Shown piece by piece: positions 10,129-28,018 of a stretch of 64,000 nucleotides of DNA (position 1 is the first letter of the stretch; every line of letters starts with the position of its first letter). A program made the position numbers and the translations under genes. The notes under the pieces were generated by a model. That model saw nothing but the letters and a program-made list of their open reading frames with translations, ran no database searches and was not told where the DNA came from. This stretch comes from Chitinophaga pinensis (GTDB lineage: Bacteria; Bacteroidota; Bacteroidia; NS11-12g; UBA955), in NCBI GenBank assembly GCA_945877575.1, contig CAMDUE010000006.1:32767-96766 (forward strand), read 5' to 3'.

Positions 10129-10352
10129 GTCCATAGTCCATAGTCCATAGTCCATAGTCCAAAGTCGAAAGTCCGAGGTCCATAGTCTGAGGTCAGTAGT
10201 CCGAGGTCTGATGTCTATAGGCTGCAGCCAAAACTTCTAGTCTCTCGTCTCTAGCCTCTAGCCTCTAGCCTCTAGTCTCTCGTCTCTAGCCTCTAGCCTC
10301 TAGCCAACACCTAATGATAACAGACTTTGGACTTCGGACTTCGGACCACAAA
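10129..10352. repeat. Heptanucleotide repeat array A (32 units in unbroken 7-bp register)
   Basis: GTCCATA x4, then GTCCAAA/GTCGAAA/GTCCGAG variants, GGCTGCAGCC, TCTCTCG/TCTCTAG/CCTCTAG units and CTTCGGA units. GC-rich relative to the flanks. Confidence 0.95.
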
Positions 10353-10946
10353 CTAATTTATCATCGCCTGCTTAACAACGTCCCAAACTTCATCTTTGCC
10401 GAGACCGGTTTCTGAGGAAGTAATGATGAAAGGAGGAATTTCTTCCCAATCTTGGGAGAGTGCATCCAAAATTGCTTTGTGATTGTTTTCGAGTTCCGTT
10501 TTCTTGAGCTTATCAGCTTTAGTCCCTATGAGTACTATGGGAATTTGATCGGCGCCGCAATCATTGATAAATTCTAAATCAATGGATTGTGGCGGTATTC
10601 TGAGGTCAATTAAAATGAATAGACAAAATAAATTCTCGCGGTTACGCAAGTAATATTTAATCATTGTTGCAAATTTGAATCGCTTTTCTTTCGAAACTTT
10701 GGCATATCCGTAACCGGGTAAATCGCAAATTTGGAAAGTGTCATCGCAGTTGAAAATATTCAAGGTTTGTGTTTTCCCCGGTTTGGAACTTGTTTTTGCT
10801 AAATCTTTACGCTCTGTCAGCATATTGATGAGCGAAGATTTGCCCACATTTGATCTACCAATAAAGGCGAATTCTGGAAGCTTATTATGCGGTATATCAA
10901 CCGACTTTTCCCAACTTCCGAGGAATTTTGCTTGCTTAATTTTCAT
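10353..10946 (-). CDS. engB: Ribosome-biogenesis GTPase YihA/YsxC
   Basis: G1 motif GRSNVGKSSLIN, DLPGYGYA and TKADK. Confidence 0.9.
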   Translation of the reverse strand: MKIKQAKFLGSWEKSVDIPHNKLPEFAFIGRSNVGKSSLINMLTERKDLAKTSSKPGKTQTLNIFNCDDTFQICDLPGYGYAKVSKEKRFKFATMIKYYLRNRENLFCLFILIDLRIPPQSIDLEFINDCGADQIPIVLIGTKADKLKKTELENNHKAILDALSQDWEEIPPFIITSSETGLGKDEVWDVVKQAMIN

Positions 10947-10996
10947 GGAAACTTGATGTCTTCAGCCCAATAGATTGATGTATATTTGCAGCCTCA

Positions 10997-11725
10997 ATGG
11001 CAGAAATCGTAAAACCCAATCCACAGTCCGACAGTTCAAAGAAACAACAAGTCGAGGAAATGTTTGATAATATTTCGGGTAATTACGACTTTTTGAATCA
11101 TTTTTTATCTCTTGGCATTGATTATTCATGGAGAAAAAAGGTGCGAAAAGTGATTCAGAAAACCGGTGCCAAATACCTATTAGACGTGGCCACAGGTACA
11201 GCTGATTTGGCTATTGAGCTAAGTAAATTGCCCAATTTAAAGATGATTGGTGTTGATATCTCCAGAGGTATGTTAGACAAAGGTGATATCAAGTTAGAAA
11301 AGCTAAAACTTACTGATCGTATACAATTACAGCAAGCAGATTCTGAAAATTTGCCCTTTCAAAACGAAGAGTTTGATGCTATTACCGTAAGTTTTGGTGT
11401 TAGAAATTTTGAAAATCTTCAAAAAGGAATGACCGAAATGGGTAGAGTGCTGAAAAAAGGTGGTTGCCTAGTGGTACTTGAGTTTTCTAAACCTACAAAT
11501 CCCATTTTTGGAGCTCTTTACTGGTTCTATTTCAAATACATTTTGCCACCCTTGGGCAGATTGGTAAGCAAAGATGCAACTGCATATACATATTTGCCAC
11601 AGAGTGTTGCTGCTTTTCCTGAGGGACAAGAATTCGTGAAAGTAGCAAAGGCTTCGGGATTTGAAAACGTAAAATATAGGGGCCTAACTTTTGGTGTGTG
11701 CACTCTTTACGAATGTTATAAGTAA
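10997..11725 (+). CDS. ubiE: Demethylmenaquinone/ubiquinone C-methyltransferase
   Basis: YDFLNHFLSLGID, SAM motif LLDVATGTADLA and FGVRN. Confidence 0.9.
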   Translation: MAEIVKPNPQSDSSKKQQVEEMFDNISGNYDFLNHFLSLGIDYSWRKKVRKVIQKTGAKYLLDVATGTADLAIELSKLPNLKMIGVDISRGMLDKGDIKLEKLKLTDRIQLQQADSENLPFQNEEFDAITVSFGVRNFENLQKGMTEMGRVLKKGGCLVVLEFSKPTNPIFGALYWFYFKYILPPLGRLVSKDATAYTYLPQSVAAFPEGQEFVKVAKASGFENVKYRGLTFGVCTLYECYK

Positions 11726-11738
11726 CTTTGAATCGTTT

Positions 11739-12455
11739 TTGCGTAGAATTATTTTAATATCGCTTCTGTTTTTTACCTCTTTTTCAGCGTGGGCCGATGT
11801 GATTCCTTATGCCCCTTTGGTACCTAGAGATCCCAATCGAATTTATCGAAAACGATTCTTCTGGGGAATCGCTTTCTCCGGCACACAAGCGATGATGAAG
11901 ATGGATTTAGACCCATCCTTCTGGGGAAGAAACGACTCGCTGTTGAATATTTCACCACAGCCTCAATTGGGCGGTGGATTTGGAGGAAGCGTAGCTATGC
12001 GAATTGGTAAGCGCTGGGAAACAAAAATGTTGACCATGTTGCAATTGCACGGCAGGAATTTAGAGTTTGATTGGGCAAACCGTCCCAATGAACTTCTCAG
12101 AATCGAAACCATTTCGTTAGATATTCCATTGACCATGAAGTACCGATCTGATATGCCCAATAATTCAGGGTTTTTCGTGGTTGGAGGATTGCGCTGGTCA
12201 CACGATTTTCAGAGTAATGAGAAGTTGGTTATTGGAGCAAGCAAGCCATTGGTTGCATTAAAAGAAAATACATACTATTACGAATTCGGTGCTGGATTTG
12301 AATTTCGGATGGAATATGTGGATTTAAGTATAGAATTGAAAATGTCAAACGGAATCAATAACGGTTTGGTTCGAGTGCCTGAAAGTTATTATTCAGGTTC
12401 CATGAGCGCCATTTATCCTAGATTGTTTTCCATCACCTTAATGGCTCAAAATTGA
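11739..12455 (+). CDS. Outer-membrane beta-barrel protein (PorT-like porin family)
   Basis: Alternating beta-strand pattern ending in an aromatic-rich C-terminus. A TTG at 11739 gives the signal peptide MRRIILISLLFFTSFSAWA. The ORF track starts at 11691, overlapping ubiE. Confidence 0.5.
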   Translation: MRRIILISLLFFTSFSAWADVIPYAPLVPRDPNRIYRKRFFWGIAFSGTQAMMKMDLDPSFWGRNDSLLNISPQPQLGGGFGGSVAMRIGKRWETKMLTMLQLHGRNLEFDWANRPNELLRIETISLDIPLTMKYRSDMPNNSGFFVVGGLRWSHDFQSNEKLVIGASKPLVALKENTYYYEFGAGFEFRMEYVDLSIELKMSNGINNGLVRVPESYYSGSMSAIYPRLFSITLMAQN

Positions 12456-26476: not shown

Positions 26477-26494
26477 TTGGCGTAAATTCGTGAC

Positions 26495-27121
26495 ATGCAG
26501 TTTCAACGACTGACTTTTGTCGCAGCCGCTCTCTTTTTCGGGGGATGTTTTATCGGGGGATGTACTTCTGAGTCATCGAACGGGTCAAATTCTGATACAG
26601 GATCTAGCTCTGAGATTTCTCCCCAAAAGGATTCACTTATAGTTGAAGGCGATCTCACAGCGAGTGAGTTGGATAGTTTTCGAATCAGACGGGCTTTTCA
26701 GTCTAGTGCAAAGAATTTCAATGAAGCATTCAGAACAGGTAATTTTGAGGAGTTTTTGAATTATTTGCATCCCTCAATAGTTGCTGCCAACGGCGGAAGA
26801 TCGTCCTTTAAAAGTAGATTAAAAGAAATTTACAATGCCAACGATACCGCCATGTACAGGCAAACGTTAATTGGGCCGGTTTCTCAAATGATTGGGGTTC
26901 GCGATCCCAAGGGAAATCTCACGGGTTGGTACTGTACTATGCCCGTAAGACGTTGGCTGAAAGGGGCTCCTGAACAAGAGTTTCAACTACAATGGCTGGG
27001 TGGGCAAACCTTGAATGCCGGTAAAAATTGCTATTTTATTGATATTACTCAAATAGAGAAAGAGAAAATTTACCAAATAATGCCTGATTTTAGGTACCTC
27101 TTAGAAAATCAAACTCGTTGA
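26495..27121 (+). CDS. Hypothetical lipoprotein
   Basis: A lipobox (FFGGC / IGGC) followed by a Ser-rich linker. Lies 18 nt downstream of the receptor gene. Confidence 0.5.
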   Translation: MQFQRLTFVAAALFFGGCFIGGCTSESSNGSNSDTGSSSEISPQKDSLIVEGDLTASELDSFRIRRAFQSSAKNFNEAFRTGNFEEFLNYLHPSIVAANGGRSSFKSRLKEIYNANDTAMYRQTLIGPVSQMIGVRDPKGNLTGWYCTMPVRRWLKGAPEQEFQLQWLGGQTLNAGKNCYFIDITQIEKEKIYQIMPDFRYLLENQTR

Positions 27122-27163
27122 TTTTTTTTACCATAGAGAACTTTCCTGATGTAACTTTGTCGC

Positions 27164-27820
27164 ATGAAATTTTTCATCGACACTGCAAATCTTGAACAAA
27201 TCCGCGAAGCGAATGACTTGGGTATTCTTGACGGAGTAACTACCAATCCATCTCTCATGGCTAAAGAGGGAATCACAGGCGAAGAAGCCGTTATGAAACA
27301 CTACAAAGACATCTGTGAAATCGTAGATGGTGATGTAAGTGCTGAAGTTATTTCAACAAACTTTGAAGGAATGGTTGCCGAAGGCGAAAAACTAGCGGCC
27401 ATTCACGAAAATATTGTGGTTAAAGTTCCCATGATCAAAGACGGAATCAAAGCCATCCGTTATTTTTCTGATCGTGGAATTCGCACCAATTGCACTTTGG
27501 TATTTTCTGCCGGACAAGCCATTTTAGCAGCAAAAGCAGGCGCAACTTATTTATCTCCGTTCATTGGTAGAATTGACGACATGAATTGGGATGGAATGGA
27601 ACTCATCAAACAAATTGCTGAAATCTATGCTGTACAAGGATATGAAACTCAAATTCTTGCAGCAAGCATCAGAAATCCATTGCATATTGTAAAGAGTGCT
27701 CAATTCGGCGCAGATGTAGTAACTTGTCCGTTGAGCGCCATACTTGGCATGCTAAAACACCCATTGACAGACATCGGATTGGCACAATTCTTAGCTGATC
27801 ACGCGAAGGCGAGTAAATAG
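27164..27820 (+). CDS. fsa: Fructose-6-phosphate aldolase / short transaldolase (family 3B)
   Basis: MKFFIDTAN, GVTTNPSL, VKVP and SPFIGR motifs; 218 aa. Confidence 0.9.
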   Translation: MKFFIDTANLEQIREANDLGILDGVTTNPSLMAKEGITGEEAVMKHYKDICEIVDGDVSAEVISTNFEGMVAEGEKLAAIHENIVVKVPMIKDGIKAIRYFSDRGIRTNCTLVFSAGQAILAAKAGATYLSPFIGRIDDMNWDGMELIKQIAEIYAVQGYETQILAASIRNPLHIVKSAQFGADVVTCPLSAILGMLKHPLTDIGLAQFLADHAKASK

Positions 27821-27822
27821 TA

Positions 27823-28018
27823 GTCTATGGTCCATAGTCCATAGTCGGTGGGCGATAGTCCGTGGTCGGTGGTCGTGAGACGAGGGGCAAGTGACGAGAG
27901 GCGAGGGGCGAGAGACCAGAGGCGAGTGTCTAGGGGCTGCTCTCCCCGAAACCCGAAACCCGAAACCCGATACCTGATACCCGATACCTGATACCCGGTA
28001 CCCGGTACCCGCTCCCCG
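27823..28018. repeat. Heptanucleotide repeat array D (28 units in unbroken 7-bp register)
   Basis: GTCCATA/GTCCGTG/GTCGGTG units, a purine-rich core with GGCAAGTGAC, AAACCCG x3, ATACCYG x4 and GTACCCG x2. Starts 2 nt after the fsa stop. Confidence 0.95.

Follow-up and report, generated by a model that had tools for sequence, protein, structure and literature searches.

Introduction

Why does a bacterial genome keep long arrays of degenerate seven-base units between its housekeeping genes, and how do separate gaps come to use the same units? These questions are raised by a stretch of Bacteroidota DNA of 64,000 nucleotides (contig CAMDUE010000006.1 of assembly GCA_945877575.1, hereafter the window), in which an earlier note had described four intergenic heptad arrays, A to D. 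To our knowledge, neither the spread of one heptamer to many gaps nor the role of such arrays has been explained since the first description of repeats of this type, the cyanobacterial STRR repeats. The locus offers a natural experiment: four arrays (five with one just outside the window) stand amid housekeeping genes, dozens of strain alleles are available in public metagenomes, a sister lineage uses another vocabulary of units in the same gaps, and outgroups have empty sites. We conclude that the arrays are probably slippage-driven, largely neutral, hypervariable heptanucleotide minisatellites that lie in the intergenic space 3' of genes and are occasionally copied from one to another.

Heptad arrays of one family

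A sliding scan of the window for period-7 autocorrelation exceeded 0.5 in four tracts only (10069-10376, 19703-19929, 23860-24212 and 27792-28068), with peaks of 0.74-0.87, and no other period from 3 to 12 reached 0.6 anywhere in the window. Tandem Repeats Finder recovered the same four arrays together with higher-order periods of 14, 21, 28 and 35, so that both methods bear out the claim of four heptad tracts, A to D, and no others in the window. At the coordinates given for them, the heptads run in exact register, with 32 units in A, 22 in B, 38 in C and 28 in D. The arrays have a GC content of 49-62%, against 39.7% for the window, and the description of GC-rich arrays in an AT-rich genome thus holds. 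Adjacent units had been said to differ by 0-2 substitutions; at block borders we counted up to 4-6. All four arrays lie between open reading frames (ORFs), and relatives show terminators or empty gaps at these places rather than ORFs, in agreement with the view that the arrays are non-coding.

With 22-38 units in register and an intergenic position, the arrays have the form of heptanucleotide long simple sequence repeats (LSSRs), that is, repeats of a head-to-tail unit of 5-11 nt that are longer than expected by chance and lie in non-coding DNA. They also share the slippage-like polymorphism in unit number, as short-read assemblies with flanks that are identical or 98-99% identical differ by multiples of 7 nt.

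Judged by their sequences, the arrays are homologous members of one family. GGCAAGTGAC occurs in the window at 19822(-), 24029(+) and 27886(+), three times against 0.09 expected, and GACGAGAGAC at 10240(-), 10275(-) and 24043(+), three times against 0.02 expected. All shared words that had been listed for the arrays are exact, and these two are far above chance; the third, TATAGGCT, is weak evidence, as it also occurs once outside the arrays, at 1033. Words of 10-26 nt are common to the arrays, and B, C and D have in common a core of about 24 nt around GGCAAGTGAC, which is present in many strain alleles of all three loci. The arrays follow a common architecture in one register, (GGTACC-type) - GTCC-type - purine-rich GAGAC/GGGGC-type - CCCGNNA-type - (GGTACC-type), and adjoining blocks are connected by 1-2 substitutions, as in B, where GACCAGA passes through GACCTGA and TACCTGA to TACCCGA. 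Both the block order noted for B, C and D and the core inversion noted for A were correct, and the shared words together with the B/C/D core argue, as had been proposed, for a homologous family rather than for four independent slippage events.

The survey of the window and the adjoining sequence covered about 81 kb and yielded five arrays. The fifth, E, lies outside the window to its left and consists of eleven GGTACC units, followed by GAGAC units and ten CCCGACT units. To the right, no array was present over the 7.4 kb that adjoin the window.

Change in unit steps between strains

Strain alleles were taken from contigs with identical flanking proteins in ENA, JGI, Logan and NCBI, all from short-read metagenome assemblies. 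Gap-free alleles measured 132-238 nt at A (10 distinct alleles), 156-247 nt at B (8), 220-362 nt at C (4) and 118-203 nt at D (13). The arrays were 46-93% identical to those of the window, against mostly 96-100% (down to 91% in divergent strains) for the 600-nt flanks. At 100% identical flanks, one 35-nt copy was missing from A, C was one 7-nt unit shorter, and D differed by gains, losses and swaps of units. The length of B was 2 mod 7 in seven of the eight gap-free alleles, and the D alleles fell mainly into two residue classes, 2 nt apart owing to an indel at the conserved centre GGGGCTGCT(CT)CCCC. The comparison of alleles shows that the arrays gain and lose one or several complete units at a time, and the rate of this change in 7-nt steps is tens of times that of change in the flanks. 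The higher-order periods of 14, 21, 28 and 35 accord with events that involve several units at once. The suggestion that these are hypervariable minisatellites is thereby strengthened, as unit counts differ between strain contigs with near-identical flanks, mostly in 7-nt steps.

Block order was unchanged in all alleles. This is what slippage predicts, and the kept order is therefore not evidence of selection. At A two allele classes exist: the window allele consists of two half-arrays, head to head, and the other class is a single complete array in the orientation of the minus-strand gene (L167, L171), with L170 being a hybrid.

For this lineage, assembly breakpoints within arrays were seen as N gaps in contigs L013, L015 and L155 and as contig ends in L153, L169-L171 and L342. 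In practical terms, the arrays break short-read assemblies and produce spurious ORFs, and they would suit high-resolution strain marking.

A vocabulary switched between sister lineages

A sister lineage, represented by the metagenome-assembled genome GCA_023653095.1 and related contigs, has flanking genes with 87-92% nucleotide identity to those of the window lineage. It carries heptad arrays, likewise variable in length, at all four orthologous gaps and at one extra gap. These are built from GATCACC, CAGCCGT/CAGCGGT, CAGCTCT and GGCTGAC, a vocabulary common to its own loci, and only the GGTCCTT block and TAGGCTG at A resemble the window arrays. For different loci within a lineage the canonical 8-mer Jaccard index was 0.093 (n=35), with longest shared strings of 10-31 nt; for the same locus in the two lineages it was 0.000 (n=7), with longest shared strings of 5-11 nt. 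In strain L141 of the window lineage (flank divergence 4-7.5%) the 8-mer index was 0.27-0.55 for the same locus, against 0.01-0.09 across loci. On the evidence of these k-mer comparisons, the vocabulary belongs to the lineage and not to the locus, and orthology is retained at the level of strains. In E the 11-mer CCGTCAGCCGA, characteristic of the sister vocabulary, has been kept. Homogenisation between loci at the level of single strains was considered and rejected, because different loci of one strain have no more 8-mers in common than different loci of separate strains; any homogenisation is thus not fast.

Since independent colonisation of the same four of about a dozen gaps of at least 75 nt is unlikely, the arrays at the four gaps would most simply be ancestral to both lineages and have been rewritten later in a lineage-specific manner.

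Relatives with 71-79% protein identity in the Zn-ribbon protein beside B lack the arrays. At the position of B, a canonical bidirectional terminator stands alone in L146 and L150, and a terminator followed by unrelated short repeats is found in L142, L143, L144 and L145. The repeats are GTTTAAA/GTTGAAA-type heptads and CCCCCTAAT 9-mers in L142 (2521-2750) and L143 (10795-11030), with the two-part module duplicated in L143, a GTTTATAAGN 10-mer after the terminator in L144 (8380-8480), and CCAGTAG heptads in L145. L142, L143 and L144 belong to the relatives with 77-79% protein identity at this locus, and their short repeats may be related to the arrays, as AT-rich cousins, or may be independent. 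L143 has no array at the positions of A or C.

Proposed slippage in tolerated space and its rivals

Slipped-strand mispairing or unequal exchange during replication would be the engine of such minisatellites, and new unit variants would be amplified locally into blocks. The order of blocks would be kept because slippage cannot reorder units, and the heterogeneous cores would be most stable because neighbouring units there are unlike each other. The arrays sit where extra DNA is tolerated, that is, after terminators and between convergent or co-directional genes. The likeness between loci and the change of vocabulary could be due to copying or conversion that takes place now and then between arrays, or to amplification, specific to each lineage, of variants drawn from a common library. 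The arrays are most likely near-neutral passengers and not sequence-specific regulatory elements, even though some of their blocks have a predicted potential for non-B DNA (G3N4 G-quadruplex motifs, GGTACC hairpins).

Several observations weigh against this explanation. The GC content of 49-62% in a 40% GC genome is not predicted by pure neutrality, and neither is the fact that every sampled strain keeps an array, of at least 118-156 nt per locus. The shared vocabulary would require a copying process, and different loci of one strain were no more alike in their 8-mers than those of separate strains. At B the relatives' canonical terminator is missing, and the array, which adjoins the stop codons on both sides, may therefore have taken over a function. 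Finally, the unit counts rest on short-read assemblies, several of which have N gaps or contig ends inside arrays. As neutrality leaves the retained arrays, the GC-richness and the position of B in place of a terminator unexplained, a trans-acting writer, 3'-end elements and G-quadruplex elements stay alive as alternatives to slippage.

We regard it as unlikely that an active lineage-specific process, be it a trans-acting heptad-recognising protein, templated copying or directed conversion between arrays, rewrites all arrays into one vocabulary. It would explain the vocabulary switch at four orthologous gaps, the persistence in all strains and the GC-richness, and might be the general reason why many phyla carry one heptamer at many loci. 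The form of this idea in which a lineage-specific heptad-binding protein or a templated synthesis or conversion system dictates which heptamers are kept is improbable as well. It agrees with a vocabulary that follows the lineage rather than the locus, with arrays kept by both lineages, and by every sampled strain, in the same four gaps, with their GC-richness, and with the genome-wide use of a single heptamer in other phyla (PMC4692102). However, the window and its vicinity offer no candidate gene, the neighbours being housekeeping genes, detail within a lineage is locus-specific according to the Jaccard values for L141, and unit variants differ between loci of one strain, CCCGGTT, for example, occurring only at C in L141.

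Functional 3'-end elements, namely terminators, insulators between transcription units or stabilisers of RNA 3' ends, are likewise a doubtful explanation. A and C begin directly after the T-runs of terminators, B stands in place of the relatives' bidirectional terminator, and divergent gaps are free of arrays: in the window, arrays occupy two of eight convergent, two of 36 tandem and none of eight divergent gaps. The statement that all arrays sit at gene 3' ends holds for A-D, but C and D also lie just upstream of the next gene. RNA folding of the window arrays gave z-scores of -6.6 for A, -3.4 for B, -4.1 for C and +1.6 for D. Across alleles, with z-scores computed against mononucleotide shuffles, values were negative in most A, B and C alleles, so that most of these fold better than shuffled sequence, owing to palindromic GGTACC or to halves that stand head to head. 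Values were near 0 in two of the ten A alleles, those of the single-array class, and zero or positive in all 13 D alleles, and both groups are unstructured (z about -1 to +3); a common RNA structure as a trait of the family was rejected for this reason. Terminal inverted symmetry had been ascribed to C alone; A and B have inverted ends too.

Against a 3'-end role it also speaks that the array hairpins lack a following T-run, that A and C would be redundant with the terminators ahead of them, that D and E lie inside probable operons, and that the arrays are hypervariable in sequence and length and absent in relatives. E is inverted relative to transcription of both flanking genes, by which a fixed orientation, with the GTCC/GTACC end facing the 3' end of the upstream gene as A-D had suggested, was rejected. 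No Rfam 15 model matched inside any array at E <=1, and only tRNA-His passes the gathering threshold in the window. A link of the palindromic units to restriction-modification was rejected too, since the sequence outside the arrays shows no avoidance of GGTACC (10 observed, about 5 expected). The 3'-end, insulator, RNA-stability and protein-binding roles offered by the earlier note lack family-wide support, because orientation is not fixed, RNA structure and G-quadruplex potential depend on the locus, and the arrays are missing in the relatives with 71-79% identity. No function is supported for the family as a whole.

That the arrays are G-quadruplex or i-motif elements of the GGGNATC type, the CCCGNNA blocks being G3N4 repeats on the opposite strand and acting via non-B DNA or RNA, seems quite improbable. 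A canonical motif (at least four repeats of a G3-4 tract with a 3-4-nt spacer) is predicted in all alleles of C (4/4), D (13/13) and E (1/1), on the minus strand in C and D, opposite the CCCG block. B carries three copies of GGGTATC, an exact match to GGGNATC, the position near stop codons and between aligned ORFs agrees with Rehm 2015 (PMC4692102), and other low-GC contigs among the matches listed in our wider search carry homogeneous arrays of TTTCGGG and of GGGTATC. The motif is found, however, in none of the ten A alleles, all of which lack any run of three or more G or C, and in only one of eight B alleles, another of which has 14 CCTGATA units and no C3 run; G-quadruplexes were therefore rejected as the unifying feature. 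The GTCC, GGTACC and GAGAC blocks are unable to form them, the G-rich strand is sense at E and antisense at C and D, and a preference for four units is absent.

Non-autonomous mobile elements inserted at the array sites, such as MITEs (miniature transposable elements with inverted repeats), repetitive extragenic palindromic (REP) elements or bacterial interspersed mosaic elements (BIMEs), are very improbable. A dispersed family with a common internal order, intergenic positions at gene 3' ends like those of REP elements and inverted ends on some arrays would fit, but the arrays have neither the constant termini nor the target-site duplications of MITE or REP-BIME elements, they occupy the same orthologous gaps in both lineages and all strains, and their length varies within a site in 7-nt steps. 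The absence of a transposase had already been noted, and there is indeed none among the neighbouring genes of the window, nor a RAYT gene nearby; a single contig has an IS3-type transposase pair at locus A.

An assembly artefact of short-read metagenomes is hardly credible: several assemblies do show N gaps in arrays or end within them, but independent assemblers and samples give the same arrays with the same block order and reproduce the window alleles of B and D exactly, and homogeneous runs are at most 98 nt in most alleles, below the usual k-mer or read length (exceptions being C in L141 and A in L349).

Array anatomy and neighbouring genes

The features of the five array loci are listed below.

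Table 1. Arrays, blocks and adjacent features. Positions are those of the window unless a contig is named.
Feature	Position	Strand	Description
Terminator before A	10095..10125	+	Intrinsic; 9-bp stem and T-run; serves 179-aa gene 9532-10071; terminator scan, RNA fold
Array A	10129..10352	.	32 heptads, between convergent genes; begins directly after terminator T-run
A, GTCC-type block	10129-10219	+	
A, centre	10220-10240		GGCTGCAGCC
A, GYCTCTA block	10236-10305		Perfect 35-bp x2 repeat; reverse complement of GAGAC-type units
A, unique stretch	10304-10324		
A, inverted GTCC units	10325-10346		Facing EngB-like GTPase gene 10353-10946 (-)
Zn-ribbon gene, beside B	18947-19741	+	
Array B	19744..19897	-	22 heptads, whole gap between convergent genes
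B, GGTACC-type block	19897-19856	-	Minus-strand reading
B, AGAGACC/GGCAAGT purine block	19855-19793	-	Minus-strand reading
B, CCTGATA/CCCGATA/CCCGAAA block	19792-19744	-	Minus-strand reading
panB, beside B	19898-20713	-	
Terminator before C	23878..23903	+	Hairpin and T-run 3' of dnaK (21932-23848); 10-bp stem in RNA fold
Array C	23904..24169	+	38 heptads, between co-directional genes; begins directly after terminator T-run
C, GTACC x3	23904-23924	+	
C, GTCCARA x7	23925-23973	+	
C, GTCCGTG/GTCTGTA	23974-24008	+	
C, heterogeneous core	24009-24057	+	With GGCAAGTGAC and GACGAGAGAC
C, CCCGAAA x3	24058-24078	+	
C, CCCGSYA block	24079-24134	+	
C, GTACC-type tail	24135-24169	+	
Spurious 90-aa ORF, no gene	23866..24138	-	From ORF list; crosses array C by chance, inside period-7 tract
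Array D	27821..28018	+	28 heptads, between co-directional genes
D, GTCC/GTCG block	27823-27878	+	
D, purine block	27879-27941	+	With GGCAAGTGAC; centre GGGGCTGCTCTCCCC
D, CCCGAAA/CCCGATA/CCCGGTA block	27942-28018	+	
Array E	L341 14795-15037		About 3.5 kb left of window position 1; between 169-aa gene and pgk, both on same strand

B leaves 2 nt to the stop codon on one side and 0 nt on the other. The order of units given for C by the earlier note is right, except that the second unit is GTACATG and not GTACCNG, and the start of D, placed at 27823, is at 27821, one base after the TAG stop codon (27818-27820) of the transaldolase-family gene 27164-27820. D ends 47 nt before the queD-like PTPS gene 28066-28479. 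The start of this gene, a TTG at 28066 in the window, is called differently across assemblies (137, 119 and 79 aa; window gene, L004, L009 and L352). The 90-aa ORF over C could be annotated as a hypothetical protein by gene callers. In contig 'ledVAbl3' (ERZ21966605) an IS3-type transposase pair (rve and HTH_Tnp_1) lies directly 3' of the EngB-like gene, in the usual place of array A and the 179-aa gene; this arrangement may be an insertion of the element or a rearrangement at the array.

The genes around the arrays are housekeeping genes, free of mobile-element genes. According to their Pfam labels they comprise HisRS, an aromatic amino-acid lyase, the EngB-like GTPase, TGT, LptF/G, NIF3, the Zn-ribbon protein, PanB, DnaK, a TonB-dependent receptor, the transaldolase-family protein, the QueD-like PTPS and FolE. 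Several members of the 90% cluster of the window's DnaK, from multiple contigs, have 459-476 aa and are labelled 'hypothetical protein'; these short members may be truncated calls or a shorter paralogue.

Elsewhere in the window, the convergent gap 16438-16528 is free of arrays and has a perfect bidirectional terminator, whose stem of 14-16 bp is accompanied by an A-run and a T-run; its sub-threshold Rfam matches, to Thr_leader and to sRNA models, are in all likelihood look-alikes caused by the terminator. At 37824-37897 a tandem repeat of 33 bp (2.2 copies, 87% matches) lies in or next to the overlapping ORFs 37746-38189 and 37795-38295 and is possibly coding, its unit length being a multiple of 3. 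Just right of the window, beside smpB, a DUF6364 and PIN-domain gene pair (L345-L347, 1561-2260) looks like a toxin-antitoxin module.

Comparison with known repeat systems

We searched one-genome-per-species bacterial contigs and IMG/VR contigs with a GTCC-phased five-heptad pattern and sampled at least 289 loci. Cyanobacteria, Verrucomicrobiota, Chloroflexota, Planctomycetota, Acidobacteriota, Bacteroidota, Actinomycetota and others were among the matches listed, where about half of the loci held two or more arrays within 8 kb and roughly one in four arrays on genome contigs was composite. The composite architecture of the window was not found among the 289 sampled loci, a small sample in which only homogeneous CCCGAAA or GGGTATC arrays resembled it. 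Inverted block pairs were rejected as a general rule, being present in only 6/60 and 12/52 composite arrays of other taxa among these loci, where random block pairs gave a background of about 3% each. Among the IMG/VR matches listed (L295-L327), several low-GC (34-44%) viral or proviral contigs have homogeneous TTTCGGG/CCCGAAA and GGGTATC arrays of 5-12 units, and L316 and L319 have alternating CCCGAGA/CCCGATA arrays with flanking inverted GGGCC repeats.

Closest in taxonomy are the long intergenic heptamer-repeat assemblages of Gramella forsetii, Aequorivita sublithincola and Elizabethkingia anophelis (MacGregor 2015, PMC4679880), so that an equivalent in Bacteroidota, of which the earlier note knew none, has been described. 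Like the arrays here, these Flavobacteriia assemblages place several heptamer types in long intergenic regions, bring about contig breaks and are missing from the same gap in the closest relatives (PMC4679880). The TAACTGA system of that work consists of direct repeats mostly just upstream of start codons (PMC4679880); no TAACTGA dimer occurs here, even at one mismatch. Block order, strain alleles and vocabulary turnover were analysed here and not in PMC4679880.

G-quadruplex-forming GGGNATC repeats in Xanthomonas and Nostoc lie near stop codons, vary between close relatives and are transcribed, and no function was found for them (Rehm 2015, PMC4692102). These repeats and the related GGGGA(C/T)T units resemble our arrays in being G3N4 heptamers, CCCGATA being GGGTATC on the opposite strand, and in lying between aligned ORFs near stop codons, in the same gaps of related species, with variable length and sequence. 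They differ in that only the CCCGNNA blocks here qualify, the other blocks not being G-rich, and in the preference for four units.

The STRR1-3 units of heterocystous cyanobacteria are CCCCAGT, TTGGTCA and CAACAGT. The analogy to STRR repeats drawn in the earlier note stands, as both are tandem heptamers in non-coding DNA, and STRR genomes also contain several unit families, often adjacent in one gap (L023, L031, L041). The units here are different (GTCCNNN, GAGACNN, CCCGNNA, GGTACCN), and the host is an uncultured lineage of another phylum, Bacteroidota (Bacteroidia); moreover, STRR units occur genome-wide at hundreds of sites, whereas we count five arrays in about 81 kb. STRR heptamers are on record for Calothrix and Nostoc (as cited in PMC4692102).

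Heptamers have been reported to be the most abundant long simple repeats in many bacteria, with polymerase slippage as the proposed cause (Mrazek 2007, as cited in PMC4679880 and PMC4692102). The arrays of the window belong to this class of heptanucleotide LSSRs, which is also the home of STRR and is already described and widespread. They have in common with it the head-to-tail units of 7 nt, a length far beyond chance, the intergenic position in a free-living bacterium, the proposed slippage and the sporadic distribution. Unlike described LSSRs they are composite, with 3-5 blocks in a recurring order, and their host genome is AT-rich and apparently small, whereas the LSSR-rich genomes described so far are mostly large and GC-rich; in addition, the present data document population alleles and a vocabulary that changes from one sister lineage to the other.

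Concerted evolution and the 'library' model are known from eukaryotic minisatellites and satellite DNA. Our arrays share with these repeats the internal blocks of variants, the hypervariable number of units and the greater likeness within than between lineages, but are bacterial, short (about 120-400 bp) and dispersed in single gaps between housekeeping genes. With the library model they share a pattern suggestive of differential amplification from common variants, E retaining an 11-mer of the sister vocabulary. Set against all these systems, the point of greatest interest in the window arrays is a vocabulary that is common across loci within a lineage and switched between sister lineages.

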